The position numbers and the translations under genes are program-made. Under the pieces are notes generated by a model that worked only from the letters and a program-made list of their open reading frames with translations, was not told the origin of the DNA and searched no databases. A DNA stretch of 64,000 bases from Lytechinus pictus. Its lineage: Eukaryota. The DNA is taken from NCBI RefSeq assembly GCF_037042905.1, contig NC_087250.1, positions 19,904,001 through 19,968,000 on the forward strand, written 5' to 3'. This document shows positions 1 to 61,683 of this stretch, in pieces (position 1 is the first letter of the stretch; each line of letters begins with the position of its first letter).

Positions 1-244
1 TCGATAAAAAAAATTTAGCGGCGGATTTATCGTGAAACATGACGAGGGGAAGGCTGAATCAGCTCCCAATTTTAGGGTTAAACCTCAATCTTTTTTATGA
101 CATTTATTCATCTCGAGGAGAAAAACACTTATGTAAATTGATAGCTAAAAGAGCATGGATAAGCGAGAGAGCAATGTCACTTTATTGTATTCATAAAGCA
201 ATACTTTATTAGATAATCGATTACAAAATATAGGATATATGGGA

Positions 245-423
245 GGTGCCGTGGCCGAGTGGTCTAAGGCGCCTGGCTATACATGGAAAGTCCGGAGTTC
301 GATCCCCGGCTGCGGCACCTATGCCCGTGAGCAAGGCATTTAATCTAAAATGCTCTTTTATCCTGCTTTCAAATAAATGGAAATGCTATATGCATTATTG
401 GTAACTAGGTGTGCACTTAAAAA
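245..423 (+). mobile_element. tRNA-derived SINE (tRNA-like head 245-319)
   Basis: A-box TGGCCGAGTGG, B-box GGAGTTCGATCCC and acceptor-like stem GGTGCCG/CGGCACC. The anticodon arm is non-canonical, and a non-tRNA body with an A-rich end follows. Confidence 0.75.
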
Positions 424-771
424 GGATACTAATTTTCTACTTTTTTATTGGTGCTATATTTTTTACAATTTTTTCTTTCTTTTTTTACCTACAAATATTC
501 ATTTTATATTTAAATAATACTTTTGGGACTACAACAAATGAATTAAGCAATTTTTAAAAGGAAAACAGTTATTAAAGAGAAACTAACCTGTTAAATTATG
601 TGCTTTTATACAGATATACATTAAACATACAATATGTAAATTGTGATAGATCAACAGGAATTTAAGTCTATATCCAGTCCAAATTTATATTTTTGTCGAG
701 ACACCTGCTCAGTCTGGACGGTGTCTCCAATGTTTGACGTACTGATGAGTCTAATATCTAATATCATGATT

Positions 772-3405: not shown

Positions 3406-3441
<36 letters not shown>

Positions 3442-3547
3442 GTATGTGTGTGTGTGTAATTATGTTAAACTCAATTGTGTCTGCCCCCCCTCACCTCTGA
3501 GGAGAGATTTCAGCACCCCCACTGAAAAAATCGTTCCCAGGTCCCTG
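772..3547. mobile_element. Non-autonomous hAT-like DNA transposon with nested insertions
   Basis: Imperfect TIRs CCGGGACCTGCGAA / reverse complement CAGGGACCTGGGAA. 8-bp TSD TCATGATT at 764-771 and 3548-3555. Internal degenerate repeats with core GCTCGCGCTTCGCGCTCGCAT at about 2640-3340. Confidence 0.8.
1429..2349 (-). mobile_element. 5'-truncated L1/Tx1-type LINE (ORF2 C-terminal zinc-binding region, 3' UTR, poly-A)
   Basis: ORF 1604-2203 has CxxC...HxxxxC (SCMFCEAEETFVHIMLEC). The poly-T on + at about 1428-1437 is the poly-A tail. 15-bp TSD ATATGTCTCCCTTAT at 1414-1428 and 2350-2364. Confidence 0.88.
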
Positions 3548-4392
3548 TCATGATTTCCCTGAAATCACTAGATATTTCATTATCTTATAGATGGGTAAAA
3601 TATAAGGGAGTCATCATTGTCTCTCTTCGTTTCCTCACATCTTTCAGCCCCTCATCGATTTTTCAGCCTTTTGTATCTTACGATGGATACCTCTGAGTGC
3701 TCAATATTGTAGATAAAACATGATTATAAATGAAGAGGTGAAGGGGAAGGTGCATGGGGGGGGGGGGGGAGTTGCAGCGGAGGAAGACAAAATATGACGT
3801 CATTATTATTTCATATTCTATTATTGTTCTATTTTTGGCATATAAAACATAATTACAAGTAAAGAGGTGAAGGGGAGGAAAGCGGCGCGAAATAAAAATA
3901 CGACATCATCATTATTGTTATTTTTATTATTATTATTGCTATTATTATCATGATTATTTATTTTTATTGTTATTTTATTATTATTATTATTGTCCTAATT
4001 ATCATTTTTATTATTAATATCATCATTACACTGTATTATAATTATTTCTATTATTATTATTATGATTATTAGTTACTCAAACATGATTAAAGGGGTGAAG
4101 GGGACGGTGGAGACAGAGGCGCAAAATAAAATTGGAATTATAATTATTATCATTATTATTTTTAATATTATTATTATTATTTTAGAAATAAATAGTTTAA
4201 AAGACCTACACCACTATCTCGCTTTATTGACACGACATTTGCTCCGGTGTTACTGTTACCATAGTAACATTGCTTCTCAGCCAATCAAAAACAAGGAAAG
4301 GTGTCAGATATGGCAACTTGTCACACAAAGTGATGAAACGCTCTATAAGAGTTTTTGGTTCACAGCAATATAGGCCCAAAGCAACAATTGCC

Positions 4393-4814
4393 CCCGGGTG
4401 GGGCCAGTCAAATATTCTGCTGTACACACGCGTGATCAAGTTCCAAACACACCCGAAACGAGTTTTTCTCTTTGTGCAAAATAACCCCTAAACAGGTTTT
4501 TCGCGGGCTTTATTTACACATTTTGGCCCCTAAACAAGTTGTCGCCAAAATATGACCTCAGAGGAAAAGCTTGGGGAAAACATAACCTAAACACGTTTGG
4601 CTAGTCTTTAAAAAAGCTATGAGGGGGGGGGGGGGGGACATGCCCTAAATACATTTGACCCCGCGATTGACCATTGACCAGTTTTTCAAAACCACCCTTT
4701 TCTCGAAAATCCACGCGCGGACTGCGTCTATATAGAACTGAAAAAAAAAAAACACTCACGCGGTTTTTTTTTTATCACGCGTGTGTACAGCAATACATGC
4801 ATGCCCCCCCCCGG
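4393..4814. mobile_element. MITE with CCCGGG-type termini
   Basis: Subterminal inverted repeat GCTGTACACACGCGTGAT / ATCACGCGTGTGTACAGC. 8-bp TSD CAATTGCC. Same structural type as 52444-53117. Confidence 0.7.
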
Positions 4815-6057
4815 CAATTGCCATGGAACCGTTTTATCAATATCCCCCAATCCAATTGTTTTACAATGTCATGAATGTGGAGGAGATCAATATCCTTAAC
4901 CCTAAATAGACTGGGCTATTTCGACGCCTAAGAAGACGGGGGGGGTGCTGATCTTTTAATTGATCTATCTTATTCGTCTCCTCTCACATCTTGCAGCCCC
5001 TCATCCATAAAACCCTTTGTATAATGTCTCTCATGCACGTATGACCTTCTGCAGTGGCGTATATATGCAGGGGGGGGGGGGTTCAACCCCCCTTAAATTT
5101 TGTTGATACCCAACCCCCTTAATTTTGTTTATTTTTTTATTTTGCTAGTCAAATTTTTATGACGTGCGAAACGACGTAAAATTTGTGGTGAAGACCCTCT
5201 TTTTTTTTGGGGGGGGGGTAGGAAACGACCTAAAATTGGTGGTGAAGACCTTTTTTAGGTTGTCAACATTTCCTTCAGCTTTAACCCCCCCCCCCCTAAA
5301 AATTACTGACATTCTGTTCCTTCCATCTCTACTTTGAATGATCATTTGTGGTAAAATGAAAATAATCATACCCAATTACTTGCTACATAATGTACGGAAT
5401 TTGCCGATTTTTCCTTCGGATTTTTTTTCTTCGCAAATACCTTAATACGGCAGCGCAGCCTCTTCTTTCCAATTTATTCTGCAGAATTCTGTGACGAAAC
5501 CTTCGGCTTTGCACCTCTGAAAAGTTGTTCCGGAGTTGGCGAATCAATGATTTTGTACCTGTATGGCTGATCTGGTGAGTTGATCCTCATGTAAATTAAT
5601 CAAGGCTTAACGAACTGTTACTTAAAAAAACAGACAAAAGCTGTGTTTCACTTTTTAAACTTCAAGGAAGTTGCGCCGCGGAGTTACTCAGCTCGGAACT
5701 CCGCTCAGCTCAGCACCGCCCCCGACCAAGTCGGCGCGCGCCGGGGCGCACCCCGACGTCAGCCGGTGCAGGTTTTCTTGAATTGTGTCGGTGCTAATGC
5801 AGTTTCGCATTGGCCCCGTCTTGCCTTGTCTTGCTCTGCTTGGCCTTGGGTTCAGTCGGCATATGCAGACTTGCTGTACTCCGCCAACCTGGAGATTAAT
5901 GTCATATAGACTTTGAGGCGTTCAACTTCAAGTGCAAGTGCAGTACAACTTCATGAACTTAAGACAAGATATCAGTTATCACACTCACACAGTCACAGAC
6001 GTGCTTAATGATGGAGCCAGGGACAAGATGCCATTACATTATCGACTACGTAGCCAG

Positions 6058-9000
6058 GGGCCTGTTGCATGAAAGGGTCTTTCGTAGAACCATTCTACGT
6101 AAGAACGAGATATCGCTCAACTGTTTCACAAAGCCGATTTGGGCGATACGAAGAATGGTCCTTGGATTTGGAAAGACACCTCCAGACATGTCCTACGTCA
6201 ATCTAGGCGACACCCCAATACTTACCCGTGCTAATAAACTGGGACTCCACTCACACGCATTTGGGCCGCCCTAGCTTAGAACTAAGCAATATTATCTAGA
6301 AATTGTTACATTGTAGTCATTAAATATGTTCTATTAAATAAATTGATAATGTTTAATCGGTACTCACAGGTTCTTTTGTTGCATTTTCAGACCATTTCTC
6401 ACAATTCTTCGTAAATATTTGCGGCAAATTTTGTCGCCATAGACAGCTTAGCATCCATCTTTATTGATAAATGGAGCGCCCTTTACGATAGTTGTTAATG
6501 CCGCGGAGAAATCGTTAGGCATTTTGGCCTGTGTTCAAGGCGTTCTTTCTGTTTTATTTTTTATATTGAAGATTGTGCATTTGTTGAATAGTGCCGTCTA
6601 CGTCAGGTATGAGATCGAGTGTATAAATACACTCTTCCAAAATAATTATGATTCCGACCTGGCGCTGTTTAACTTCAATCTCTTTCACCTAAATTAGCGA
6701 TGAATGCTAGCATTATAAAATATATATTATTAACGTCTGACGAAAAGAATAACCAACCGATCAGCTGACGAGAACGCGAATCACGTGATCTTCATATCAG
6801 CTTCGATCGCGAGTCAGAAGAGAAGAGCAGCTGCCCAGAAAATCAGGAAAAAGCCGTGAAAATGTAAGTTCCCCTTCATTTCTTTCATTTTTTGTTGTTG
6901 CTAACGATGCATTTACACTATAAAATTATAATTTAAATAAGAGAAAGGAATATAGCTTGTACTTGTGATATAATATATAAATATCCTGTTCTCAGAGATT
7001 TCTAACCAAAAATACTACTGATGTCGCCTATGAGGTCCATACATGTAATGTTGGACCTCATTGGTACTAGGAGTGTCCTACGTAGGCATGATCTTCTTTG
7101 CACACCGCCCGCCACCGTCGGCATTGAGAGAAAATGCGCTTACGGCAAGCCATGCACACTGACATATCACCTTTAAACATTTTTTGGGGTTGCACACTGA
7201 TGCATTTTATCTGGGATGGCGCCAAGTTATTTTTTATATGGGGGCTAGCTAGTTGTCATCAATTTCAGGTAGTCTTTTTGCACGGCAAGACGACCAAAAA
7301 CAGATGTCATTTTAACTTCTCCGGGCATTATGTCCGGGGGTAATGTAGGCCCAAATATTTTTTCTTTTATTCTCCGTCCTATCCCCACACCATTTCCATT
7401 AATTTTTTTGAAATATCGAAATGGGCGGCACTATCTCTTCGACCCCTCATGCTTTCTCATTATAGATAATTAAACAACATGAAAACAAATTTCTTTAAAA
7501 GAAATTATGTAAAGTAAAAAACGTGTTTATAACGTTCGGCAAAAAAAAAATACAAAACTAAAATGTTAAACATGGTAAATCATTCATTTATTTTTATTTC
7601 ATTTTCATTATAATCATTGCTTTTTTGCTGAGATTGATATTAATCAATGAAAATTAATTGTCGGATTTTTAATTGGGCTAACTTGAGATGTGAAACAGTG
7701 AAACAAAACAAAAAAACTGCAGTAACAAAATAGCTAATTGAATTTAAGATACAGATTAGGAGTATAGCTTTATTATGAATCCATCACAATTATTACAAAT
7801 GAAGATAAGCTAGCTAGTTTATTAAAGAAAAAAAATATGGAAAGTCCATACGAAGAGGCGCATTTTAAATTGTAGGGTACATATAGGCCCCTCTCGGCCC
7901 CTATAAATGTTAAAGCTTCTCTACTCCTCAACTTTGAAATGTTAAAGGTCAAGTCCACCCCAGAAAAATGTTGATTTGAAACAATAGAGAAAAATCCAAC
8001 AAGCATAACACTGAAAATTTCATCAAAATCGGATGTAAAATAAGAAAGTTATGGCATTTTAAAGTTTCGCTTATTTTTCACAAAATAGTTATATGAACAA
8101 GTCAGCAACATGCAAATGAGAGAGTCGATGATGTCCCTCACTCACTGTTTCTATTGTTTTTTATTGTTTGAATTACACAATATTTCAATTTTTAAAAATT
8201 TGACAATAGGGATCAACTTGATTGAATCACAAAATGCTAAAACAATGGTACTTCCACATGTTCAGAGAGGAACAAAACTTTCTTTCACATGACAAAAAGG
8301 GGAAAATTAGAATAATTCATATTTCATTCAATAAAATACAAAAGAAATAGTGAGTGGATGACATCATCAGTTCCCTCATTTGCATACAGACCAGGATGTG
8401 CATATAACAATTTTGTGAAATTAAGCAAAATTTAAAAATGTCATAACTTTCTTATTTTACATCCGATTTTGATGAAATCTTCAGCGTTGTGCTTGTTGGA
8501 TTTTTCTCTTTTTATTCAAAACAACTTTTTGTTGGGGTGGACTTGTCCTTTAAATATATATTGTTTATATTCTTAAAACTTATATTCTTATATAAGCTTC
8601 CATAAATTAAGTAATCAACTTTAAAGATGACCAACGTTTATGATCATTGTAATATTTAGCATTATTTCTGTAAATAGTATTTTTTCCATTGCGGATTGCA
8701 CACCCTTTTCTATGTTTTAGTTTAGTTAGTTTAGTTTACTCCAACGATGTTGTATATAGGACTAAGCCTGATCATCGATCAAAGTAGAATGTCTATTGCT
8801 GCTCTCCTTCAGACAAAATTAGGTGTGCTACTTATGTTGGCAGGGAGGGGTGGCAGGGGGTATTTTTTTAAATTGTTATTGCAAAGCACTACTTTATCCA
8901 CTTAGACATGTTTGCAGCAATTTTCATATATTCCTTGTCTTCGGTTACTCATCATGCAATTGAGGTATGTTTGTACTCTAAACACTCACATTTGTATTTC

Positions 9001-9692
9001 TTGCGTTTTATCTGACAAATAAAATAAATAAATTAGATTTTTCACAGGCAGCCTCTCATATTTTCCTTTTTAGTCTCATACAATCAGACACTGTTGATTT
9101 TGTTCACTCCATTCAAACCCTATTTTTACCTCAACAGATAACATATTAACGCATAATTTGCAAAATTATCATTATATATATGTATTCTATAAAAAATCAG
9201 TATATTGAACTAATAATATGTCGAAATTACTTTGTTAAATCAATTTTTATGTCGGACAAGGGTCTCTTTCGTTGAAATATCAATGAAAGGTGTCTCTAAA
9301 AGGACACCGTGTTCTAAATAAGGGAAATAATGAAAATTTCGATTTTATCCAGTTATGTTTGTGAATCTTGAAAGTTTTTTCTCTTTTTACCTCATAAAGT
9401 ACGCTCCATACATCAATTCTACAATCAGTAATAAATAAAACATTATTTGATTCCCTTTTATTGAAATATATGATTTTATGAAAAGTCGTCATTCCGAAAT
9501 AAAAGGTTCAGGTGACGATGAAGACTAATAAATATTTTTCCGATACTATCGATATCAAACGATGTCGCGGACTTGAAAGACAAAATTGCCTTCGTGAAAC
9601 GGAAAGCGCTGATTTGTCGCCAATCTTCCTATCTCGGAAGAATGGTCCTAGGACGTTCCTACGTATCGCTCATCTCGTCATGCAACAGGCCC
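6058..9692. mobile_element. Non-autonomous PIF/Harbinger-like element, about 3.6 kb
   Basis: TIR GGGCCTGTTGCATGA / TCATGCAACAGGCCC. 3-bp TSD CAG. The subterminal motif GAAGAATGGTCCT occurs at both ends. No intact transposase ORF. Confidence 0.8.
7946..8549. mobile_element. Kolobok-like MITE nested in the Harbinger-like element
   Basis: TTAA TSD and TIR AGGTCAAGTCCACCCC / GGGGTGGACTTGTCCT. Related copies at 29665-30242 and a fragment at 11417-11510. Confidence 0.8.
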
Positions 9693-10000
9693 CAGGAGGC
9701 TTCTAGAGAGTAAAAATCATTTACTAACGTAGGCTTACTCTCAATGAAGCCAGGTCTTCCTTCTCATTCACCTACACGAAGGACCACAAAACCTGAATTT
9801 CTGAAACTTTCACCCCCAAGATTTCTACTTTCCTTCTAAAAAATCTAGCCCTAGAGCCTAAATCATGTACATGGGATAAAACTTCATTTCCGACATTTCT
9901 ACGCTCTCGTTGTTAATTTTAAACAAGAATTCATCAAAAAATGAGAAAAATATTGTGAAAAGACGGAAGAGACTTGCCCGATGTTTACGCCGCCATCTTG

Positions 10001-10069
10001 TTTCCTATTGTTCTTCGCCAACGTTACGCAATGCACGCGTCTGTAACGTTGGCGAAGAACAATAGGAAA
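10001..10069. repeat. Perfect 27-bp inverted repeat (hairpin)
   Basis: TTTCCTATTGTTCTTCGCCAACGTTAC, a 15-nt loop, then GTAACGTTGGCGAAGAACAATAGGAAA. Confidence 0.9.
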
Positions 10070-10301
10070 ATAAACTTAAAGGGGAAAAAAAAGTGACTTC
10101 GGCTGTCGCGCAACTTCACTTCCCTGTTTTATCTGAACTTAATACATAAACATATATGGCCGTGGCATTTAGTCCCTTTACAGATCGAGCTAGAACTTCG
10201 GTCTCTGTATTTGGTGAGTGGAGGCAACAGAGTTCAGCGGAACAGCCAACATAACAGAGACCGAAGCTTTTGGTCTAATTTACCCCCTGCACGTACTAAT
10301 G

Positions 10302-10745
10302 TAGACAGCTGGCAGCCGTCTGTTTCAAGGAGTTTTTTAACATTTTAATTTTTTTTTTATTTCTCCTCGTACACAGACGGCTCGCTATTGTGCAGCCACC
10401 ATTAGGGGGTTAACAATGCAAAATCCCCCCGACGGGGCTCATCAATTTTTTTCTTTATTTCATAAAAATATATAAAAAAACTACCAAAATAAAGATTATT
10501 ATTCCATTTTGGCCTGAAATGCACCAAAACTGGAAAAAATACACTAAGGGGGAAAAACAGTTAATTCAGCTGTCGCGCAACTCCCACTTCCCTGGTTGAT
10601 CCGAACTTAATACATAAACATATGGCCATTGAGTCCCTGTACAGATCGAGCTACAAAGTACAACTTCGGTCTCTGTATTTGATGAGTGGAGCCAACGGAG
10701 TTCAGCGGAACAACCAACATAACAGAGACCGAAACTTTTGGTCTA
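10302..10745. mobile_element. MITE with TAGAC...GTCTA ends and 9-bp TSD
   Basis: TSD GTACTAATG on both sides. Second copy at 23705-24089 and a partial copy at about 10070-10277. Confidence 0.8.
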
Positions 10746-11325
10746 GTACTAATGGTGCATGTATTTATTCATATTAATCAAGAAAAAATGAGAATAATTG
10801 ATTGTCGCCATCTTGCCGTCTTTGTTATCGTAGCCTAGCTACAAGATGCATATAGAGGGCAACAATATCATGAGCAGTGCCAAGGTCTTAGATAAAAAAT
10901 ACTTGCATCAGCCGATAAATATCATGAATCGTAAAATACTTGCATCGGCCGATAAATATGATCATGAATTGACTTCGTTAACATTTGTTCCGCAAAATGC
11001 GCCAATTACTCCGCTGACGTTTGCTCCATAAAATGCGACAAATGCTCCACACACATGGCCGATGAAATTTGGATCTGGAATGCTTATTTTGCTAATTTCT
11101 CAGCTCTCGCACATTTTTTTCGAGAGCCATTTGGCACATATTTTCTATTTATACATAAATGGGTGATCATTTTATTGGATTCTATTCAAACTCATTTTGA
11201 GATTGTTACCACAACTGGTTTTTATCTTAAAATATATTTTCCACCACAGGTACTGGTACTACTCTTGATATTTCCCATCCCAATGAAGTGTTATAAGATG
11301 ATGAAAGGAGGGAATTATCAATGGA

Positions 11326-11380
11326 ATGGCAGAGAATTTTAAAAGGAGGTTCAGCTTCAGACACCTAAGTTTCAGGAAGG
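11326..11380 (+). CDS. SH3-domain gene, coding exon 1 (MAENFKRRFSFRHLSFRK)
   Basis: Acceptor ccacag|11250, ATG at 11326, donor G|gtaag in phase 1, compatible with all downstream exons. Confidence 0.65.
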
Positions 11381-11716
11381 GTAAGAATTTTCAAAAGAAA
11401 ACAATTCACAGCTTAAAGGACAAGTCCACCCCAACCAAAAGTTGATTTGAATCAAAAGAGAAACATCCAACAAACATAACACTGAAAATTTCATCAAAAT
11501 CGGATGTAAAAGTATTAACAAACGCGCGCACCATACGCGTCAGAAATAATTTCATTTCGTCAAAACGTTGCAACATCCTTCTAAAGGGAACTTGAATGGC
11601 AGGATTATGAAAAATGGTCAGAAACACATTTTCCAAGTCTCTATATTCTCAAAATAATAAAATATGGTAAAAATAACTCATGAGTAATTTTGTTGTTTTC
11701 TCAACTTTTCCCACAG

Positions 11717-11731
11717 GAAACAAACGTCATG
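11717..11731 (+). CDS. SH3-domain gene, 15-nt microexon (GNKRH)
   Basis: Acceptor ttttcccacag and donor gtaata. Symmetric phase 1-1 with an open frame. Confidence 0.5.
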
Positions 11732-12628
11732 GTAATACGATAGCATTTTCAAGTGGCCCAAATATTTCACGTGGGGTTCGATCGGAGGCTGATTTCGAAA
11801 AAAATTAAGATAAACATATTTGTGTACATGAATGGTGGAAGTTTTATTGAATTTTGTGAGAATATTGTGTTTGATATGATTGAATCTATGAAGTGTTTGG
11901 TAATACGATCCACTACCCGACATCTCCAGTCCAGTAAAATATGATATAGATTTATTAACCATTTGCACATTATAAATGTTGCAAAATTTCACACAGTTGT
12001 TTAGTTGAATTAAAGTGCTTTTCTCCATCATAATTGTACCAGCGAAGCTCATATTAACTCTTCAGTATTATGTATCAATGATACGATGAGGACGGCAAAG
12101 TTCAAAGAAAAACTTGAAAGAACAATATTTATCCCTTTGGAAATAATTGAGCATGCAAAGATTTTTAAAACAATGGAAGAACTCATGGAATGTCTTATAG
12201 AATAGGGACAGTATGAACCACCAGAGACAACAATTATCGTACAAATTCAAAGGAAAGATTTTTTTCATATGAAGATTGAGCTGTATACATTGATTGAACT
12301 TGAACTTGTGGGATAAGAGGGTAATTATAGCGAACACTTTGTATCCTCAGGCAAAAAGCACTATATAAACCCAGCAATTATTTTTATTGTTTTGACAAGA
12401 ATAAGGAATTCAAGTAACATGATTCATAATGGAATGGAAATTAGAGTAAGTTTTTATTAATTTTCCACTCTTTTCCACAGCCAAAAATTAATCTCACTGA
12501 CCAAAGTGAATTCCCATAGAAATATGCCCTATGTCCAAAAAAAAATAAAAATTAAGGTACCTTTAAAATTCCTGTGGCTCACTGGGAATGAAAATAGTAT
12601 TCTAATAATTTTCCACTCTTTTTCACAG

Positions 12629-12784
12629 CAAAAAAGCAACCTGATCGACCCAAATCAATTCATGTCACAGAACCCCAAGCAGAGTTGAGAAGAACAACTT
12701 CATCTAGGCAACCGAAGACATCAGGGGATACTGCACGTGCATCGAATTTGAAGAGATTAGCTCCCAAGAAGCCTTCCTCCCCAG
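12629..12784 (+). CDS. SH3-domain gene, repeat exon A (KKQPDRPKSIHVTE...KRLAPKKPSSP)
   Basis: tttcacag / gtaatg, 156 nt, phase 1-1, homologous to the exons at 15754, 18867 and 19516. Confidence 0.85.
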
Positions 12785-12825
12785 GTAATGTCATAGCGCC
12801 CTCCCTCAGAGGATATATGAATATA

Positions 12826-13091
12826 ATAATATAGGGTATTTATATTGCGCACATATCCACCTTGTTAGGTGCTCAAGGTGCTCCTATATAACCCGGTTAA
12901 GCTAGGTGTTCATAGCGCACACAGCTTTTTAAGGAATTACTTCCTACCGGTACCCAATTACCTCACCTGGGTTGAGTGCAGCACACTGTGAATCAGTTTC
13001 TTGCTGAAGGAAATTACGCCATGGCTGGGATTCGAACCCACAACCCTCTGTTTCAAAGTCCGAAGACTAATCCACTGGGCCACAACGCTCC
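12826..13091 (-). mobile_element. tRNA-derived SINE with L2-like 3' tail
   Basis: On the minus strand: A-box TGGCCCAGTGG, B-box GGTTCGAATCC, core CTCAACCCAGGTGAGG, tail GCACCTTGAGCAC...GTGGATATGTGCGCAATATAAAT. A related degenerate copy lies at about 45940-46138. Confidence 0.85.
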
Positions 13092-13623
13092 AGAAATGCA
13101 GAAATAGAGTTGTCAGAGATGTGCCAGCTGCATATCAGCAACATATATTTATAATCCCATAGCGCCCTCCCTCAGAGTATATAGGAATATGTGTAAACGG
13201 TGTTGTCATATGGTTTGGCATGTGATAATATGAACATATTTCGTTGTCATCAATACCCCCAAAAGGTTGAATAATGTAAAATACTTGGATCTGTGGTATT
13301 AAAGTGATCAGATTCAGAATTTATGGAATTGTAGTTTCGAGACATAAAAGGGAAAGAGAGTCTTCAATAATATGAGAAATAGATCAAAGTTAAAAAAAGT
13401 TATAGTATAAAAGAGAAGAATGTTAACAAAAGAAAAAATTTCTTTCAATTAAAAATTAAAAACTTAGATAAATACAGCGGAATGTATCACACCACGTGTA
13501 TATTCATTTTTCATTATTCAGTTCATTTCTGTTTCGAATGACCTTTTTCACGCATTTCCTACTCGTAGTGGCACGCAACACAATCATGTTGTGATTGTGT
13601 GACAATCATCACACAAGCGTATT

Positions 13624-13990
13624 ATGTTCAAGATTTTGTTGTTAACTTTTCATTGTGTTCATGGCTCATCTCCCCAGTACCTTATTTCACTTATCAAAAG
13701 TTATACCCCTTCAAGATCCTTACGTTCCTCCTTTTCCAATTCTCTTGTTGCCCCAAAAATTTCCAAAACCTGGGGTGAAAGATCATTTGTTTACTCATCC
13801 TCTAAGCTATGGAATAGCCTCCCTCAAAACATAAAACAATGCTTGACTTCTGAAACTTTTAAACATTACCTCAAAACATTTCTGTTCAATTCTTCTTAAT
13901 TTCTTTTATAATTTCCTAAAAAGCGCCTTGAGCACTCTACAGAGTGGATTTGGCGCGATATAAGTCTAATTATTATTATTATTATTATTA
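13624..13990 (+). mobile_element. 3' fragment of an L2-like LINE
   Basis: Typical ORF2 C-terminus FKILLLTF...PQYL...YTPSRSLRSS...GERSF...KLWNSLP, then the 3' motif AAGCGCCTTGAGCAC...GGCGCGATATAAGT and an (ATT)n tail. Confidence 0.85.
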
Positions 13991-13999
13991 TGTGGCCAT

Positions 14000-14720
14000 C
14001 GGAGGTCCCAGCCTCTTTGACCTTTTCATGGATTTTAGCTTGCCACAAGAGATCGTGGTTGTAAGCTGTCAGGGCAAGCTTGGCCAGTGCATTACCAGTT
14101 CCTTTTAATCGCCTCCCGGCACACAGAACTGCAGAGCGCTTGTGGTGTGTACAAAATTTTACAATCATCACCCGCAGTTTCCTCTTGGCTGTAGCGCCCT
14201 CAACATTTGACATAGTGTTCTCATAGGAACTTGAAGAGGCATCCTGGCAACGTGATGCGATCCGTCCAAATCGTCTGTTGATCGCGTCACACCCGGTCGT
14301 TCCGTGGCAATACCGCGTATCAATTCGTCGGTTTTCTTATCTTTGTTATTAGGTATCCCGTAGAATAGCAAACAATTCCTACGTTAGTACTGTTGCATCT
14401 CATTCATCTCAAGTTGGAGATTGTTGATGCTCGAGGCTTGATCGGAGAGCATTCTATCGAGGCCTTCAATTTTTTTTACCTGAGACTCAATTTTGGCTTC
14501 TGAGTCCATTATCATTCCAGCATTGTACTTGACATGCTCTGTTAAGCCAGATTGGCCACCCTCTAATTGCTCGATTTGCTTGAATAACTTGTTCAATTGC
14601 TTATCGATTCCTTTTACAATAGCTTCTTCAACAGCTTTGAAAAATGCATCACTCTCTAAGTATTCCTCGACTGCTTGAATGACAATGGTTTTCTGCATTC
14701 GACTTGGCTCTAGTTGTCAT
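14000..14720 (-). pseudogene. Disrupted LINE ORF1-like remnant (coiled coil plus RRM-like segment)
   Basis: Heptad-rich ORF 14384-14698 continues past a stop into QQY*RRNCLLFYGIP and later, in another frame, IVKF. These motifs are typical of L1-type ORF1 proteins. Confidence 0.7.
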
Positions 14721-15753
14721 GATGAAATGTTAGCTCATAAAATTTTACACCTTGGAAAATCACATGAAAAAGTAATGTACAATGTAGTTTCGTCGCAAAT
14801 TGAAACAAAATGCAGAATTAGGTTACATGAGATTCAATGATGAAAAGACCCGTTGAATTCTGTAAATGTTAATTATTGCAGAGAAGATACAATAGTAAGT
14901 CAATTTTCAGAAATACGGCTGTCTTATCACATGATGCAATGTATTCCAGTAGTGCAAAGGATAATTATAGAGCTGAAAACATGTTCGGCTATGACGAGAT
15001 GATAATATATAAGAGTAAAAATATTCTCTCAGACAATTTCAAAACTTACAAATTAAAAGAAATATGGAAGACAATTCGGCTGTACTTGGTATTTGCAATC
15101 ATGGCTGATAGAGCTTCGTCAATCGAAGTTCCGGTTCCCGGACGATATATGTTATAGTATGTATCACGGAATATATGGTAGACATATACAACAGGTGAAG
15201 ATAGAGCATTCCGGCATAAATCGGAAGTGCGATTCAGAATGTATAGAAGACCAGATTCACGCTAAAACTATCTTAATCATGTCAATAAACACCGAAAGAA
15301 GCTATACGTACAATCTTTTTTCGACGATATAAAAAAATGTGGTATGAGACAAAATTGGAAGCAAAAAAAATATTGGCATTATATGCACCTCAAATTCCCA
15401 GTTTTCGTTTCCTGGAGTGCAAATCATGGATTGATTAAGTATTGCAATGGATAAAGTTATCATTAGGCCTACTGTTTCACCATAATTCCTTGTGAATATA
15501 TCGTATGGAAAAATATTGCAGATATGAAACGTAAAAATGTTCATAGCATAATAGACTCCCTTTATTCCATAGTGATTAAAAAGTCATTTCCGTACTTTAT
15601 TTACACGTGCCCTGTTATTTTATGGACAATCTTGTGTAAAATTTGTAATTTTTCTTGTTAAATTTCAAGTCTGATTTATTCGAATTAGCTTGATCTTATT
15701 TCTGCCCTTTTAATGATTAATGATGTTCTTCTTTTTATTTCCCCTTTTCACAG

Positions 15754-15909
15754 CTAAAAAGCAATCTGATCCTCCAAAATCAATTCATGTCACAGATTCT
15801 CAATCAGATATAAGATCGATATCTGCGCGCCAATCACCAAATACACCGGGAGGAGGTTTATCTACATCCAATGTGAAGAGGGTTGCCCCAAGCAGACCCT
15901 CAAAAACAG
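15754..15909 (+). CDS. SH3-domain gene, repeat exon B (KKQSDPPKSIHVTD...KRVAPSRPSKT)
   Basis: ttttcacag / gtaatc, 156 nt, phase 1-1. Confidence 0.85.
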
Positions 15910-16090
15910 GTAATCACTGTCCTCTTGATCAATGTCCTTAAAACAAAAATGAAAATGAAACTTGAACATCTTCTGCATTATTTTTTCTTACTAGGAGTTA
16001 TGACTGATCTGATCAACTATGGAAAGCCAGCAACATTAACATATAAAGCGCATGCTTATTCAAATGTGTTGTAGATATGTTATATATTCA

Positions 16091-18073
16091 GCTCGGATTA
16101 TTTCCGAATTTGCACTGGAGCTGAGTCACCCCCTCACCGCTATTTTCAATGAATCTATTAGAGAGTCGGTGGTGCCACATAGTTGGAAGCGAGCAATTGT
16201 GGTACCCATCCCGAAAACGACAAACCCCACTATAGAAGACTTGAGACCAGTTTCGCTAACAGACCATTTCGCAAAGATCCTGGAGAAATTTATTGCGAAG
16301 TGGTTGGTGGGTGACATTGGCAATGCGATCGATAAGTCACAGTTCGGCAACAGGAAAGGCCATTCAACTGCACATTATTTGATAGATATACTAAACACAA
16401 TTCATCAGAATGCCGATAAACCAAAAATGGTCTCAACCCTGGTGGCTACGGACTTCAGCAAAGCCTTCGACAGGATAGATCATGGGCTAGCTGTTAGGAA
16501 ACTGCTTGATATGGGGGCATCTCCGTCCTTGGTGGCTTGGATCTCCAATTTCCTCTCCAACCGAAAGCAGAGTGTACGTTATCTGTCTCAACTCTCTGAT
16601 TGGATGGAGATTTCGGCAGGTACTCCGCAAGGCACTCGACTTGGACTGATAATCTTCGTCTGCATGATCAACGACTTGTTCAAGGATAGCGACCACCAAT
16701 ATTGGAAATATGTCGACGACCTCTCCCTGCTTGAATGTAGGAAATCAACGGATCAATCAAAAATCCAAGAAGAAGTAAATAAACTGGAGAAATGGACCAA
16801 AGACAACTGCATGAAACTGAACCCTAAGAAATGTGTCGTAATGAACGTTCAGTTTATGAGAAACCCAACGTGTGTCCCAAAAGTAATAATTGATGATCAA
16901 GAACTAGGTGAAGTCCATCTTGTTAAACTTTTAGGTGTGTTCGTACAAGATGACTTAAAATGGTCATACCATGTTACAGAAATGGTCAAGGCAGCGAGCA
17001 TGAGGCTACACATGATGCGGATCCTGAAAGGTTTTCGGCTACCAGTTGAGGATTTGAAAGTAGTATATTGTTCTTATGTGCGCCCGAAACTCGAATACTG
17101 CGCCCGGTTTGGCATTCTGGCCTAACGCAGAAAGAAAAAAAAATGATTGAGAGAATTCAGAAACGTGCGTGTCGCCTCATGCTTGGCCAAAGGTACACCA
17201 GTTATGATGACGCCCTCACTGTTCTTCACCTCCCAACATTAGAAGAGAGAAGGGAAACGTTAACACTGAAACTAGCGAGTAACCTTACAAAAGAGACGTC
17301 CCCATTCCATCACTGGCTCCCTCCTACCAGAGCCATTAGCACCTCCCGTAACCTGCGGAATGCTGGGAAATACTCTGAAATTAAGTGCAAAACCCAGCGC
17401 TATAAAAAGAGCGCACTGCCATTCATTGTGAGGCTACTCAACTCAAAATCTGAATAACTGGCTAAATTATAATAATGATAACAAATAATACATTGTATGA
17501 ATTATTGAATTTTTAGTTGGCAGTATGAAATGAAATGATTAGCATCAGAGTTACTTATTCTACTTATAATATAGATGCATATCATAAATTATGCTCAAAT
17601 TATAAATCTTAATGCTCTTGGACACATTTTTTTTTCTTTTATACATTTCAAGCTGGATATCCCGCTAGTCTTTATCATGTTTGCCAAGGCAATATATCAG
17701 TGTTTTAACGATACAAAAAATATTTCTATTGCCACCCATATTGTATAAATTATATGACCTTAAACTTTGTATCCTTAAGCCTATACTTGCACCGAAAGAT
17801 GCATGACATATATATCACAAAGCAACCGTATTGAATTATATTATATTATGAAATCTTCATCTAGTAAAATCATTTGTTAAATCCTATTACCAATATCCAT
17901 TTATTCAGATCAGAGTTTAGTTACTTATGTCTTATTTCAATATCTTATTTTTAACAACTATTGTGTGTGTATTGTTTGTATTAATCATTTTTGTAAATTG
18001 TACGCAATTCAACCGTAAGGCTGCTATGTGCAATGTTTTTATACCGAAATAAATAAATAAATAAAATAAATAA
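16091..18073 (+). mobile_element. 5'-truncated CR1-group LINE (reverse transcriptase, one frameshift near 17105)
   Basis: RT motifs LRPVSLT, DFSKAFD, GTPQGT, KYVDD and LLGV. The C-terminus continues in ORF 17068-17457. About 600 bp of 3' UTR ends in (AAAT)n. Apparent 5-bp TSD ATTCA within a MITE homologous to about 27990-28262. Confidence 0.93.
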
Positions 18074-18866
18074 ATTCATACATTCATTGTTTTCTTGAAA
18101 TTCCAGTGTGCTTCTCTTTGTTTACAAAGGACATTGTGCAAATTTCCTGTTTTCCGGTAGTAGAAATTATGACATTGATGGATTTCCATATAGTTGGGGT
18201 TGATCTGATCAATTGTAACTCTTTGTAAGAGTTGCAGAAAGAGTTGCAATCAATCGTAACTCTAAAAATGATGCGCAACTTGATTTTCAACCAATCAACA
18301 GCGCGCATTTGGGACTTGCGATTGATTTTTTGGCTTGCGTTTAAACGCAACTCTTTCTGCAACGGGCCCCAGGTGCAAATCCAGGTATGGCAAAGCCGAT
18401 TGCATCGATAAACATGCAATGAACTGCATAACAATGAGAAGAGGAGAATATCGGCGATGCAGTCTTCTATGCAAAATGATGGACAGTACTGTTTAGGAGG
18501 TACTTAATTGAATTATACTCCCAGAAATATCTTAGAAACCTTTCGTTTTACAAGTCTTAGCGGTTTGTTGCAAGAAAATATTTGCAGTCAATTGCAAACT
18601 GCTTATGCAAATTTGCAATCGATATATCTAGAGCAATTTGATTTTTTTCTGCTTGTTTCAAGAATTAGACCAGCAATCTAGTGCAAATTTGCAATTTCAA
18701 AACTTATAATCAATTTTTTAACCTAAATTGACTAGTGATTGATTAAAATTTTCTTGCAATGCCCCGGTTATTAGATACTTAATCTCCGTTAATTTAAAGT
18801 CTTTTTACATTTTTTTGAAATGACACCTATCACAAGTAATCTTTGTATTTTTTCATATTTCCACAG

Positions 18867-18998
18867 CCCAAAAGCAACGTGATGTGCCTTACTCTAAAGA
18901 GGCCACTGGATCCTCTATAGAATTAAAGAGATGCAATTCATCAGGTCATAGTTTATCTAGTGTAAAGAGACTTGCTCCAGGGAGACCATCTAACCCAG
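18867..18998 (+). CDS. SH3-domain gene, repeat exon C (QKQRDVP...KRLAPGRPSNP)
   Basis: tttccacag / gtattt, 132 nt, phase 1-1. Confidence 0.85.
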
Positions 18999-19515
18999 GT
19001 ATTTATATTACATTGGATGGCTCGGGATGGAATACCAGAAATATTCCAGGAGTTCGGGCAAGTATTCCTCAAATTGAAGATTAGTGAAATATTAGCTTTA
19101 ACGGGTGGGATATTTCTGGTATTCCATGAAATAAGGCCATCCAATATAGTTATTTTTTCTATCACACTCCCCCCCCCCCCCGAAAGAAATTGATTGAGCA
19201 AGTCATGACACTTAATCAGTTAATATTTAATACCTCACTTCAGCCCTCCACTTTTATCCCAAACTGTGTACAAAAATGTAAAAAATGACTATCTGACTGT
19301 GATTTTTGCATGGGCAGCCCCCCACTTTCAGGATATTTTCATAATTTCAACCTTAGCAAGTAGAAAAAACACATGAAAACTGAATAGTAATGAATAATAA
19401 TGTTTCCAGATTGTGAAATTAATCAATTTTGATCTATTGATCAGAATTTGTTGTATTTTTGACAGAGTTTCATGATTTATTTCTCTCTTTGAATATTTGT
19501 TTTCTCTTGTCTTAG

Positions 19516-19674
19516 CTAAAAAGCAATGCGATCAATCCAAGTCAAATCATGTCACAGAATCGCAAACAGAGTTACAAGGAACAACACCTGCAGAAGAAGC
19601 TAATACTTCAGGAGAATGTTCAGGTGGATCAACTATTAAGAAGAGAATAGCTCCCAGAAGACCATCTGTTCCAG
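19516..19674 (+). CDS. SH3-domain gene, repeat exon D (KKQCDQSKSNHVTE...KKRIAPRRPSVP)
   Basis: ttgtcttag / gtaaag, 159 nt, phase 1-1. Confidence 0.85.
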
Positions 19675-20930
19675 GTAAAGAATTTTTTACTTTTATAGTC
19701 GGGGGATTATTTCATGAAACACATAGTCGGTGATTTTCACTGACTATTTGGTATAATCTACTGAAATCCTTGCTTCTGATTGGCTGAGAGTACATTATTC
19801 ATTGAAAATCACTGACAAGATGCTTTATGAAACAATCCCTAGGAGAGAGAGAGGGAACAGGAGAGTATTTAAATGACAACTGTTATAAGCTACTGAAATC
19901 CTTGCATCTGATTGGCTCAGAGCAAATTTGTCGTTGAAAATCACAGATAAGTTACTTCATAATACATCACCTGAAGAGTGTCTTTCAGCGAGATTCTCAG
20001 TCAGTGTCTGGGGTATTTAGGTTTGTGTTGACTAATTCCTTTTGTTTGTTGGAAATTCTTTTTTTTTTTTTTTTGGGGGGGGGAGAGGCATTTATTGAAC
20101 CAGGTTGGCAGCTCTGATACAAGCAAGATCCATTGCAAGGTTTTTGGCAAGTCCTGTCAGTTCCCGACTATCTCAGTTTTTACCTTAATGGTCATGAGAC
20201 TTTGCAAAAATAAGTTTATCTTGGAGTGTAGGTGTGTTCTAAGATACATTTTCCCTCAGGTGCTTGATACATCACTATGGTAACAACACATTACGGCATT
20301 GAACGAAGACAAATGCATTCCTTGATTCAGGGCTATTTTATTTTGTTACTATTAATACAATATAAAAATCTTAATGAGTTTCTGCTTCGCCAATCTTTCA
20401 AAATTGATACAAGTTTGGCGGCTTTAGCAGCATTGTTGGGACCACAGTACCCTTCCCCACATTCCAAGGTTTATCTATCTGTATTCCAAGGGAATATAAA
20501 CATCTATCCATGCTATCAATAGAGGGCATTCCCCCCCCCAAAAAAAAAGGGGGGGGGGGTCATGACCAACAGGCCAAGTTAAAAGGGAGAAAAAAAGAAA
20601 AGGAACAGATTTAAATATGATATTATTTTCAATATTTACCTTAATATTCATTTAAAAAGGTCACAATTTTTGCTCACTCATCTTTTTAGGGGTATTATTC
20701 AGTTACATTAAATTTGGAATGCAAAGAACGGGAAGTGGCCCACTTGCTGGAAATCATTGCCCTCTTTTCTTCTGGACCTCAAAAGCATTTTCTTTGCCTT
20801 TACTCTCAATAATAATGCCTTATTGGACAGCATACAAAACTGTTCCTTTTCCATTATATAATAGAAGAAAAAAAATATTTTTTCAAACTTTGAACAAGTT
20901 TTATATTAAAATGTCTTCTCATATTTACAG

Positions 20931-21089
20931 TGGAGAAGCACCCTTATCAGCATAGACCATCGTTTGACGCCACTGATTCTAAAGGTGCCTTGAAGAGATC
21001 TAAGTCTGTAACCCCAGGATGTATATTAAGAAAGGGTTCAGGCACAGCTAATGGGAGGAAAGACCTTGCCAAAAGAGCGTCAGTACCAG
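20931..21089 (+). CDS. SH3-domain gene, divergent repeat exon E (EKHPYQHRPSF...KDLAKRASVP)
   Basis: atttacag / gtatga, 159 nt, phase 1-1, ends SVP like exon D. Confidence 0.8.
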
Positions 21090-22649
21090 GTATGACCACC
21101 AACCGTCCCCTGCCAAGAGGCAAATTGTTCTGCGCCCTAATATGTATTGGGCAATTCCATAAGATGATCAACTTATATGTCCGACCCCCATTTTTCTCAA
21201 GTCTTACTTCACTTTATAAACTGACCAAGTCATGGTCCTTTAATTATTACAGACTGTCAATAGAACAAGAAATCAGAGACAGAAAATGTCACGCAGGTCC
21301 CACATATACGGGTCGGACGTACATATTTTATGGAATTGCCCTATTCTAAATTCAGATCCCATTGCCAGTCTGAAGCCTGATTTTGATATAATCATGGTCC
21401 ATTTCTGTCGTTTAATCGTGGATAGCCAAGCGTGACATGGACCTGTTAGATTTGACTTTCAATTTGTCAGCATTTTAAACTCAATACATTGAAAGTAATC
21501 CAGCAATGGTAATGAGAATTAAAATGTTCACAAAATTTTGACTCTCGGTATTCCATAATTTTAGCACTTACTTACTGGTAGGCCGTGGCTTGAGTTAAAC
21601 CAGAGATTGGAATGCAGGCCCATATTATTTAAGTGAAGAGAAGAGCAATGTAAATCCAATACTTTGATCAAAGATATAAGTCCAGTAGCAGGAATCAATC
21701 CATATTCCTTGCATCTGTAGACATGTGCTGCAACCCTGAAAAGACTTGACTATTTGGATGCCCTACAAGACCATGGGGGTGGGGGGGGGGTGGTAAATTG
21801 CCAATTTGTCTACTGCCAACTCGTCCACTCACCATATGGTCTAACTTTATTTAGCCTAATGCCATTCCGTCCATCATTTCGTCTAACAGCAATTGGTCCA
21901 TTAGCCATTTCGTCCAATCATCACTTCGTCTAATCAACAGTTTGTCTGTGACCATTTCGTCTCAGAACCAGTTGGTCTAAAATCTGTTTTATTTTCACTC
22001 ATTTTGCCCAGTCCATTTAGGCCAAATGGTATATGGACTAAATGGCTATTGGACCAACTAGTTATTAGACGAAATGGTGAGTGGACGAAATGACAATAAG
22101 ACCATGTGGATATTAGATGAACTGATGGTAGACCAAATGATAGTAGACTAGTTGGCAATTGGATGAATTGGCATTGGACGAAATGAAGATAAACCGTGGG
22201 GCGGGCTGAATTGTTCGGCCATGATTGCAACAAAAATTACCATTACCCACAGCATGCCCTACAAATCTTGAAAGTCAAATTTATAAAGGATGAAAGTCAA
22301 ATTTATAGTGGACAAATAGGGTTGTTTTCATAATTCAAGAATGGTTGATAGTTATTCCCAAATAAAAAGGTTGCTTATCATAAAAAAAGGACAAGTCAAA
22401 CTAGTGAACATCTAAAGATATTATGGATTAAGACTCGTAGCACTTACCTCCCATTATAAATAAAAATGTTCTTTCCTGATTGTGTTTAGCCACCTTCCTC
22501 ATTGTTTGTGAATAGCAACCCTCTTCCATGTTATGACTAGCGACCCTCATTTCATAGGAAATGTAGACCTTATAATGAAAGGCCCTTATGACCTTATGTG
22601 CATAAACTATTTCATATTTTGATGCATCCATTTCTTTCTCCATATACAG

Positions 22650-22852
22650 ATTGGAATGATATATGGAACAAGCCCACCATTGGGCAAGCTTTGCAATCCT
22701 TTACGGCCATTCTTCGCTGCGACTTGACCTTTGAAGCCGGCGATCAGATTGAAGTTCTGACCCAAACAAGCAAGCAGTTTGATTGGTGGGAGGGGTCGGC
22801 GCGAGGTCACACGGGGATCTTCCCTGCCAATTACGTTCAACTCCTTCAATGA
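22650..22852 (+). CDS. SH3-domain gene, last coding exon; SH3YL1-like SH3 domain
   Basis: ALQSF...DLTFEAGDQIEVLTQTSKQFDWWEG...GHTGIFPANYV is a clear SH3 signature. The FDWWEG...TGIFPANYV pattern resembles SH3YL1/Ysc84 from memory. Acceptor atacag, stop TGA. Confidence 0.93.
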
Positions 22853-22857
22853 AAGCA

Positions 22858-23527
22858 GGGCCCTGTCTTACAAAGAGTTGCGATTGATCAGGGGGGCGTT
22901 TCATCAATATTTTCGTCCGACAAGTTGTCAGATCTGACAACTTTCCTGGATTCTGATTGGTTGAGAAGCACTGTTACTATAGTGACTGGCAGATAAAACA
23001 GGACTTGTCGGATAAAACGTCTGACAAGTCCTTTCATGAAACGCTCCCCAGGACCCTGTCTCACAAAGAGTTGCGATTGATTCGATCAACCCCAACTATA
23101 TGGAAATCCATCATTGTCATAATTTTTCATCCCAGAAATTTGCGCAATGTCCTTTGTAAACAAACGAGAACACACCAAATTTTCAAGAAATGAAAATATA
23201 GATATACATTCATATCTAGATTTTTTTTAAACAAACATGTATTTTATATATTTACTTTGCTGGCTTTCCATAGTTGCGATTGATTCAATCGACCACAACT
23301 ATATGGAAATCCATCATCGTCATAGTTTTTCATACCAGAAATTTGCGCAATATCCTTTGTAAACAAATCGGAAGCACACTCAAGTCTCAAGACAACAATG
23401 AATGCATGAGTATACATCGTATCTCGAAAACATTTTGAACAAACATGTATTTTAGATGATGGCATTGCCTGGCTTTCCATAGTTGTGGTTGATTGGATCA
23501 ATTGCAACGCTTTGTAAGACCGGGCCC
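22858..23527. mobile_element. Cluster of nested Harbinger-like MITEs at the start of the 3' UTR
   Basis: Termini GGGCCCTGTCTTACAAAG / CTTTGTAAGACCGGGCCC, with an inner GGGGCGTTTCAT...ATGAAACGCTCCC element flanked by CAG. The family recurs at about 15990-18370, 27990-28262 and 48187-48463. Confidence 0.7.
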
Positions 23528-40080: not shown

Positions 40081-40641
40081 CTGTATAAACGCAAAAAGAT
40101 ACATGTAATTGATAAATACCAGAGACAAAATGTGTAGGCCTGCATAGGACTTTCGTGACAACCCTTCCCCTTTCCAGTTTTAAGGCAAATCAGACGACTT
40201 GATGGAGGGTACTGCTTAGAGATTAAGAAAAAAGGAGGATCATAAAAGGTCCTCAGCATTTTCCCTTCTTCTGACCCTTCGGCCAAATGGGTTCTCTTTG
40301 ATGTTCTTTGGCTTTCATTTCGAGAAAAATGCACGTAAACTTGCATAAGTCGTGCATTGTCCTAGGTCGAAGCAATTTTAGAATAGATTATGTAGTACCC
40401 TTCACATTTGTCAGTGTATACGTCCTGGAGAGCTTAGAGCAAGCGCTTCCAGCCCCTCCAAAGATTGTTTGACTGGATTTCTCTCCAGTTAAATAGTTCT
40501 CATCCATGTTCCGCTTGGTCATCCCATCTTTCTGTGATGCACATGTCATGACATGTGTTACATATACATTTTGCAAGTCGGATGTCTCCTTGATCGAATG
40601 CGGTATTGCGGTCCTCTTGGCTCCGACTTTGCCAAAGTTAA

Positions 40642-54302: not shown

Positions 54303-54343
<41 letters not shown>

Positions 54344-56860: not shown

Positions 56861-56895
56861 CAAGATAGCTAAAAAAAAAAAAAAAAAAAAAAAAA

Positions 56896-56980
56896 TCATG
56901 TTCACCCGCGGACTCGAACCCCTGCCTGCATGATGGAATGAGAAGTAAGTCTGACGCCTAACCGATTGAGCTAGAATATT
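56896..56980 (-). ncRNA. tRNA-like Pol III cassette in array unit 1
   Basis: A-box TAGCTCAATCGG, B-box GGTTCGAGTCC, immediately followed by a long T run. Not a canonical cloverleaf. Confidence 0.6.

Positions 56981-61650: not shown

Positions 61651-61683
<33 letters not shown>

Follow-up and report, generated by a model that had tools for sequence, protein, structure and literature searches.

Described systems and the locus analysed

The SH3YL1/Ysc84 family, represented by human SH3YL1 and by Ysc84 and Lsb3 of yeast, is defined by SYLF, a lipid-/actin-binding domain, and its members carry a serine-rich disordered linker followed by a C-terminal SH3 domain with the signature FDWWEG..G.TGIFPANYV. 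The SH3 domain of human SH3YL1 was reported to bind SHIP2 via the class II sequence PPLPPR and to pull down N-WASP, dynamin 2, PI3K-C2beta, and Tks4 (PMC3105542), and the SH3 domains of Lsb3 and Lsb4 have been proposed as hubs of endocytic assembly (PMC2756588). Here we describe a gene of the sea urchin Lytechinus pictus that occupies positions 11326-22852 of the + strand in a window of 64,000 nt (C6:19904001-19968000 of the 812-Mb assembly; AT-rich, with a GC content of 0.31-0.45). Its product, hereafter P0001, most likely descends from the SH3YL1 family. P0001 shares the SH3 subtype and the serine-rich, probably disordered linker with SH3YL1 and Ysc84/Lsb3, and a basic Ser/Phe motif with hemichordate SH3YL1, in which this motif lies behind the SYLF domain, but it differs from them in that SYLF is absent and the linker consists of five exon-encoded repeats.

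Cordon-bleu (Cobl) and Cobl-like provide a second point of comparison, as they contain several copies of a KRAP motif with the skeleton K-R-x-A-P-x-x-P. The syndapin SH3 ligands given in one report are Kr+APxpP (Cobl-like), KrRAPpPP (Cobl), and RRQAPPPP of dynamin I (PMC8282341), which agree with the parallel to Cobl and syndapin that an initial annotation, made by a model from the DNA sequence of this locus, had drawn. Four of the five units of P0001 match the KRAP consensus at K, R, A, P, and the final P, whereas the third position holds L, V, or I instead of a basic residue and the seventh holds K or R in place of P. P0001 has neither Cobl homology nor a WH2 domain. The likeness is limited to the short motif, and binding is predicted only.

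Gene structure and transcripts

The gene contains seven coding exons, all seven with an AG acceptor after a pyrimidine tract and a GT donor, and phase 1 is used at every junction. The exons, together with a dead partial exon copy, are as follows.

11250 to 11380, + strand: first coding exon, with a 5' untranslated part at 11250-11325, the ATG at 11326, and an AG acceptor at 11248-11249
12472 to 12513, + strand: dead partial repeat exon (acceptor and first codons), 148 nt 5' of exon A
12629 to 12784, + strand: repeat exon A, 156 nt, phase 1 at both ends, with KRLAPKKP at residues 60-67
15754 to 15909, + strand: repeat exon B, 156 nt, phase 1, containing KRVAPSRP
18867 to 18998, + strand: repeat exon C, 132 nt, phase 1, containing KRLAPGRP, with a middle part shorter by 8 residues
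19516 to 19674, + strand: repeat exon D, 159 nt, phase 1, containing KKRIAPRRP, with a 3-nt deletion allele at 19634
20931 to 21089, + strand: repeat exon E, 159 nt, phase 1, lacking the proline motif, containing LKRSKS and ending in RKDLAKRASVP
22650 to 22852, + strand: last coding exon, with the pre-SH3 stretch DWNDIWNKPTIGQ, an SH3YL1-type SH3 domain, and the stop codon at 22850-22852

Transcript data confirm that this gene exists and that it is transcribed and spliced as read from the sequence. A transcript contig of 1196 letters (run X15, record 7) covers all seven exons with no mismatch and no gap, a second contig (X1, record 6) connects exons D and E with the SH3 exon, and another (X1, record 3) spans exon A. 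In each of two raw stranded RNA runs labelled as this species, 19 reads crossed the A-to-B joint, with 15 starts in X19 and 13 in X20; it is the sole canonical joint among the 15 of 126 joints listed from the RNA mapping; among the same 15, no exon-skipping joint between non-neighbouring exons had read support. In the exon reads listed for the two stranded runs, the first mate is always on the - strand, consistent with RNA from the + strand. The initial annotation had proposed five symmetric phase-1 exons of 156, 156, 132, 159, and 159 nt spliced to an SH3 exon; the sizes and phases are exact, and the contigs show the splicing. Its estimate of about 344 aa for the assembled protein was slightly high, since the joined exons translate into 339 aa. 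A comparison of the assembled protein with the databases, which it had suggested, gave a letter-for-letter match to the NCBI model 'uncharacterized protein LOC129262852 [Lytechinus pictus]', and the gene model is thus already in public annotation.

The first coding exon encodes MAENFKRRFSFRHLSFRK plus the first base of the following codon. An in-frame stop at 11302-11304, inside this exon and 5' of the ATG, indicates that the reading frame starts at 11326. The X15 contig spans 11249-11379 of the exon and extends 66 letters further in the 5' direction, which, together with the AG at 11248-11249, suggests the presence of at least one non-coding exon upstream. At the other end, the 3' untranslated region (3'UTR) was seen to at least 22885, a position reached by the contigs.

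Several copies of an approximately 200-nt repeat (families D2, D7, D14, and D16) are located at 22856-23500, directly past the stop codon. The transcript contigs stop at this repeat, which lies in the 3'UTR region. An opposite-strand joint, 22889/23284, was found with 61 reads in each of two raw RNA runs.

SH3 domain and predicted disorder of P0001

Only SH3 families (PF00018, PF07653, and PF14604, at curated cut-offs) were detected by Pfam in the whole of P0001, at residues 286-337. The scores of the last exon were 41.8 bits for SH3_2 (cut-off, 21.8; 8.4e-11), 40.4 for SH3_9 (30), and 38.9 for SH3_1 (22.9). In the AlphaFold2 model, which was based on a 23-row alignment, the block-mean pLDDT values were 41-59 over residues 1-270 and 90-97 in the SH3 domain, which has five strands, and no secondary structure precedes residue 274. 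Both results bear out the view of the initial annotation that the terminal SH3 is the only recognizable folded domain, order being confined to it in the model, and that the linker is probably disordered.

By sequence, the SH3 domain is of the SH3YL1/Ysc84 type. The closest solved relative of the SH3 exon is the SH3 domain of human SH3YL1 (2d8h; E 1.4e-16, 62.9 bits), followed by the C-terminal SH3 domain of GRB2, and those of yeast Ysc84 and Lsb3 are ranked fifth and sixth. The pocket residues D297, W318, P331, and N333 are invariant among 23 aligned relatives, and Y334 is nearly so. The orthologue in Lytechinus variegatus is named 'drebrin-like protein' by NCBI. P0001 resembles drebrin-like proteins only in having a C-terminal SH3 domain after a disordered region. 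A drebrin-like/Abp1 identity was rejected because no ADF-H domain was found in P0001 by Pfam, and among the 60 best solved matches no drebrin-like chain comes as close to the SH3 domain as SH3YL1 does. The name appears to have been assigned automatically from a best hit.

Probable descent from SH3YL1 and probable loss of the SYLF domain

A profile of four sea urchin orthologues was compared with 1.84 billion representative sequences, yielding 2728 matches with E values up to 0.001. The best 150 of these were mostly multi-SH3 proteins; 19 proteins with a single stretch beyond the SH3 domain, or of short length, were fetched, and 10 were named. The named proteins include full-length proteins with both SYLF and SH3 from the crinoid Antedon (450 aa), the hemichordate Glandiceps (351 and 393 aa), and the annelid Owenia, as well as short proteins without SYLF from Holothuria (110 aa; named via a 76-aa cluster member), Patiria (111 aa), Amphiura (129 aa), and Acanthaster (162 and 176 aa). 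Pfam matched PF04366 (SYLF) in all four long proteins, with values of 1e-39 to 1e-44, whereas in the short forms and P0001 it matched SH3 families alone.

The search for PF04366 in the 812-Mb L. pictus genome gave no match. When the full-length crinoid protein was searched against this genome, all four matches were SH3 exons, the best being the exon in the window (57% identity). The SH3 domain in the window is thus the best SH3YL1-like SH3 in the genome, and no other gene combining SYLF and SH3 was found by these profile and protein matches. A search with the crinoid SYLF region returned 1744 proteins with E values up to 1e-10, about one-third of the best 120 being without a name. The named proteins among these 120 belong to crinoids, molluscs, annelids, a nemertean, hemichordates, amphioxus, lamprey, and jawed vertebrates; sea urchins, sea stars, brittle stars, and sea cucumbers are not represented among them. 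From these negative searches, we conclude that SYLF probably disappeared in an ancestor shared by all echinoderms other than crinoids.

The short forms share a basic N-terminal motif, R.LSF[RK]..KK. The N-terminus of P0001, RRFSFRHLSFRKAKK, resembles a stretch of the Glandiceps protein, KWRSMSFRSKDKKKSS, located just behind the SYLF domain, so that the short proteins look like SH3YL1 from this point onward. At the other end, the SH3 domain of P0001 aligns with those of the full-length crinoid and hemichordate SH3YL1 proteins, including the pre-SH3 W..KP stretch. P0001 lacks the SYLF domain that defines the SH3YL1 family, yet these similarities suggest that it most likely descends from that family. 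Its N-terminus may also resemble the effector domain of MARCKS.

The short forms used for comparison were Patiria XP_038053024.1, Amphiura XP_072014543.1, Acanthaster XP_022096384.1, the Holothuria form, and the Diadema and Strongylocentrotus purpuratus (XP_011678670.1) proteins. The eleutherozoan forms share with P0001 the basic N-terminal R.LSF[RK], a serine-rich linker, and the same SH3 domain, but are only 110-198 aa long, contain none to two repeat units, and have no KRxAPxxP outside S. purpuratus.

The possibility that P0001 is a short isoform of a longer, SYLF-bearing gene was rejected for this transcript, given the genome without a SYLF match and the in-frame stop 5' of the ATG. In addition, no SYLF-like open frame of at least 70 aa was seen at 1-11300 of the window, as judged by eye without a profile scan.

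Repeat units and the KRxAPxxP motif

Each repeat unit has a start box, KKQxDxPKSxHVT[ED]SQ, a variable middle part, in which C has the 8-residue deletion, and an end box, [KR]RxAPxRPSxP. Unit E has a weaker start box and no proline motif. KR[LVI]APxxP was found four times in the six frames of the window, each time near the 3' end of one of exons A-D, whereas 200 mononucleotide shuffles gave a mean of 0.01 and a maximum of 1. The (K/Q)KQxD starts that the initial annotation ascribed to the first four repeat exons were recovered as KKQxD/QKQxD. Its statement that these exons end in the motif holds in that all four contain it, but three further residues (SSP, SKT, SNP, and SVP) precede the junction. 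RLAPKKP, RVAPSRP, RLAPGRP, and RIAPRRP, at residues 61, 113, 157, and 210, all fit the class I pattern [KR]xxPxxP, in line with the putative SH3 ligand assignment (RxxPxxP) made initially. Two more matches to [KR]xxPxxP lie outside the four motifs in P0001, and there are three class II-like PxxPx[KR] strings, two of which, PSSPAK and PSNPAK, straddle exon junctions. The initial annotation had overlooked the second conserved box at the repeat start, the dense RxxS sites, and the probable SH3YL1 ancestry.

In exons A-D, the first 21 columns had a pooled ratio of nonsynonymous to synonymous differences per site (pN/pS) of 0.59, compared with 1.03 in the middle part and 0.40 in the last 13 columns; the six exon pairs are not independent, and each region contains only 13-21 codons. 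The pS values were 0.49-0.62 in all three parts, and the intron flanks of the repeat exons were 0.48-0.66 alike, compared with a mean of 0.53 and a maximum of 0.66 for random 100-nt pairs. The high pS values and flanks no more similar than random indicate that the copies are old. On these ratios, the end box containing the motif is the most constrained part of the repeat and the boxes at both ends are under purifying selection, as expected from the initial observation that the linkers diverge while the motif is kept.

Eleven single-letter coding variants were translated from the listed RNA-read differences. The sole variant within a motif is synonymous (P116); the nonsynonymous ones in the repeats include P78R, T180K, and T190A, and none affects a fixed motif position. 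The in-frame 3-nt deletion at 19634 in exon D, present in 8 of 9 and 5 of 8 RNA reads, removes Ile207 in front of KKRIAP. This residue is also absent from the L. variegatus protein, and the read variants S154N, E181D, and V335I likewise correspond to L. variegatus residues.

At 12435-12513 lies a 79-nt partial copy, 75% identical, of the intron end and the 33 nt with which exon A begins. The dead partial exon within it (12472-12513; repeat families D6 and D8), when read by eye in phase 1, has a stop at the third codon, and it is absent from the transcript contigs.

Repeat number and conservation among relatives

The number of repeat units, as read from the protein sequences, rises from one in Diadema setosum (147 aa) to two in S. 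purpuratus (198 aa; RRDAPKRP and KRRAPLRP) and five in both Lytechinus species. The single unit of Diadema contains no KRxAPxxP, only ERAPSR. When the repeat-alignment profile was compared with the database, only the two Lytechinus proteins were recovered among 2154 candidates. A tree of 13 units supports four orthologous pairs between L. pictus and L. variegatus (A, B, D, and E) and nothing deeper; the order of the duplications and the relation to the S. purpuratus units receive no support. The unit-by-unit pairing suggests that all five units are older than the split of the two Lytechinus species.

Unit E and unit 2 of S. purpuratus both adjoin the SH3 domain, and unit E is most similar to the linkers of the latter unit and of the sea cucumber protein. 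KRRAPLRP of S. purpuratus unit 2 corresponds in position to KRSKSVTP of Lytechinus unit E. Because LKRSKS and R.SVPD are common to unit E and the sea cucumber linker, unit E looks ancestral, and its conserved elements are basic serine sites rather than proline motifs.

The expansion of the repeats might represent neutral growth of the linker, the motif having no function of its own. The free variation in copy number (1, 2, or 5) among sea urchin lineages, the loss of one motif in L. variegatus, and the neutral evolution of the unit middle are consistent with this explanation, but the low pN/pS values of the two boxes, reached at a pS of about 0.5-0.6, are not. Neither are the one-to-one retention of five units in both Lytechinus species, with four of the five pairs supported by the tree, and the maintenance of phase 1 and an open frame at all junctions. 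We therefore consider purely neutral expansion very unlikely.

A different explanation is suggested by the serines. P0001 contains 9 RxxS sites and 4 [KR]xxSxP sites, and RxxS was found 10 times in L. variegatus, 10 times in S. purpuratus, and 7 times in Diadema, so that on sequence these sites are older and more widespread than the proline motif. The conserved boxes may then be chiefly sites for basophilic kinases or 14-3-3 proteins, with the prolines being incidental or tuning kinase recognition. The serine following the motif (S49) does not vary among the five units, even in E, where PxxP is missing; the sharing of LKRSKS and R[LA]SVPD by unit E and the sea cucumber protein points to an origin far earlier than that of the proline motif; and in S. 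purpuratus, positions alternate between KRRAPLRP/RRDAPKRP and KRSASVRP/RRDVTKRSS. This explanation, however, does not account for A and both P having stayed invariant in units A-D when synonymous divergence is saturated. Nor does it conflict with a role of the same boxes in SH3 docking, with which it partly overlaps. As the chief role of the boxes, kinase or 14-3-3 recognition is a possibility that we consider somewhat unlikely.

Proposed function of P0001

P0001, most likely a descendant of SH3YL1, has kept the C-terminal SH3 domain and the basic Ser/Phe motif but no SYLF domain, and tandem duplication of a phase-1 exon of about 52 codons has lengthened its probably disordered linker to five units. 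We propose that the resulting protein would most likely act as a multivalent adaptor under phosphorylation control. Its own SH3 domain may bind PxxP clients, as that of human SH3YL1 does, and the four KRAP-like motifs would be candidate SH3 docking sites, either for SH3 domains of other proteins, those of the syndapin/PACSIN type being the best lead from the literature, or for its own. Phosphorylation of the adjoining serine, which lies in a basic context, may switch docking off, and the basic N-terminal motif may, to judge from its composition, replace SYLF in membrane attachment. We hold the combination of a multivalent, phospho-regulated adaptor with KRxAPxxP sequences as predicted SH3 docking sites to be plausible, with a little less than an even chance of being correct.

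Several points weigh against this proposal. KRxAPxxP occurs four times in L. pictus, three times in L. variegatus, and twice in S. purpuratus, but not in Diadema or in any of four short forms from other echinoderms, so that conservation of the motif in orthologues, on which the initial annotation had made its reading depend, extends to Lytechinus and Strongylocentrotus only. Even there, the third motif of L. variegatus, KRLAPGRL, has lost the final proline (P163L). RxAPxxP was found in 1 of 112 linkers of full-length SH3YL1 proteins scanned. Between L. pictus and L. variegatus, 5 of 48 residues differ in the motif box, 7 of 80 in the first box, and 11 of 68 in the middle, the motif box thus not being clearly slower than the rest in this pair, and the pN/pS values come from few, non-independent comparisons. 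The last proline is preceded by K or R, whereas classical class I ligands and the Cobl consensus have a hydrophobic residue or proline at this position, and the one ligand of human SH3YL1 that has been mapped belongs to class II rather than class I. In the echinoid SH3 domains, the first tyrosine of ALYDY is replaced by Q (ALQSF), which may weaken or alter ligand binding. The absence of SYLF is based on exon-by-exon searches, a single assembly, and the best 120 of 1744 proteins, and the docking itself is predicted from sequence. A modelled complex of the SH3 domain (272-339) with residues 46-86 (motif A and the A/B junction) gave a score of 0.02 and a mark of 0.34; it was made without controls and counts neither way.

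The motifs might instead act purely in cis, by folding onto the SH3 domain of the same chain (autoinhibition) or by linking copies head to tail. Motif and SH3 domain are indeed present in one chain, and valency would grow with repeat number; SH3-dependent control also has a precedent in the family, as yeast Ysc84 is reported to bind actin only with its SH3 domain engaged by Las17 (PMC4552428). The class II ligand of human SH3YL1, PPLPPR, however, contrasts with the class I-like motifs with basic residues before the last proline, and the short forms of other echinoderms lack the motif, so that the SH3 domain evidently works without it. An exclusively intramolecular or self-associating role is, in our view, improbable.

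The adaptor proposal also has an analogue in p47phox, an SH3 adaptor with an autoinhibitory region in which a phospho-regulated basic proline segment lies in the same chain. P0001 resembles it in combining SH3 with basic, serine-flanked proline segments that may form a phospho-switch, but it has neither homology to p47phox nor a tandem SH3 pair.

A more elaborate form of the proposal is that, after the loss of SYLF, the protein was rebuilt as a phospho-switchable scaffold. In this form, the KRAP-like motifs would recruit SH3 domains of F-BAR proteins (syndapin/PACSIN) and thereby supply membrane binding in trans, the protein's own SH3 domain would bring in phosphoinositide phosphatases, WASP, and dynamin, and valency, tuned by exon number (1, 2, or 5), may drive cortical clustering. 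This scheme is speculative, and we regard it as quite improbable in its entirety.

No paper on this gene was found, a search of the literature on SH3YL1 and sea urchins yielding only an unrelated review. If the adaptor proposal is correct, the gene would be a clean natural case in which an adaptor lost a domain and was then rebuilt by duplication of an exon that encodes a short linear motif. The graded copy number (1, 2, and 5 across sea urchin lineages) would permit a direct test of how linker motif valency relates to the behaviour of an SH3 adaptor, and both knock-outs and live imaging are feasible in L. pictus. Two misleading automatic names are also corrected, namely 'drebrin-like' and 'SH3YL1' for a protein without SYLF. 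This is not a new principle but a tidy case of domain loss and motif amplification in a testable species; because the gene model is public and the combination of SH3 and proline motifs in one chain is a common design, the surprise to a specialist would be moderate.

Other elements in the window

Two repetitive elements lie in the introns of the gene. The intron between exons B and C contains a long open frame in the sense orientation (16040-17457, + strand; reverse-transcriptase domain RVT_1, E 1.5e-29), a LINE-like retroelement at which the read depth is near zero. Just past the donor of exon A, at approximately 12823-13092, is a repeat whose bin reaches a depth of about 700-800 in the raw RNA runs, with loose ends at either edge numbering in the hundreds. 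Direct repeats of 39 nt with 90% identity lie on its two sides, at 12786-12824 and 13152-13190, and the whole segment (12786-13190) looks like a SINE-type insertion with duplicated flanks.

A neighbouring gene on the - strand has, at 37751-40189, an 812-aa open exon encoding six KY-like immunoglobulin-like domains (PF23265, E 3.1e-53). Further along, an open frame at 43965-44846 (- strand) contains MGCGGSK, which could be a protein start whose N-terminal glycine is myristoylated. The region 53797-62109 contains three similar, degenerate (GATA)n blocks of about 470 nt (54210-54685, 58856-59327, and 61558-62025), and its purine-rich strand explains why GC and AT skew are strong in the last 12 kb of the window. 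A 32-nt unit that contains a palindrome is repeated in tandem at 54899-55694 and 56730-56822.

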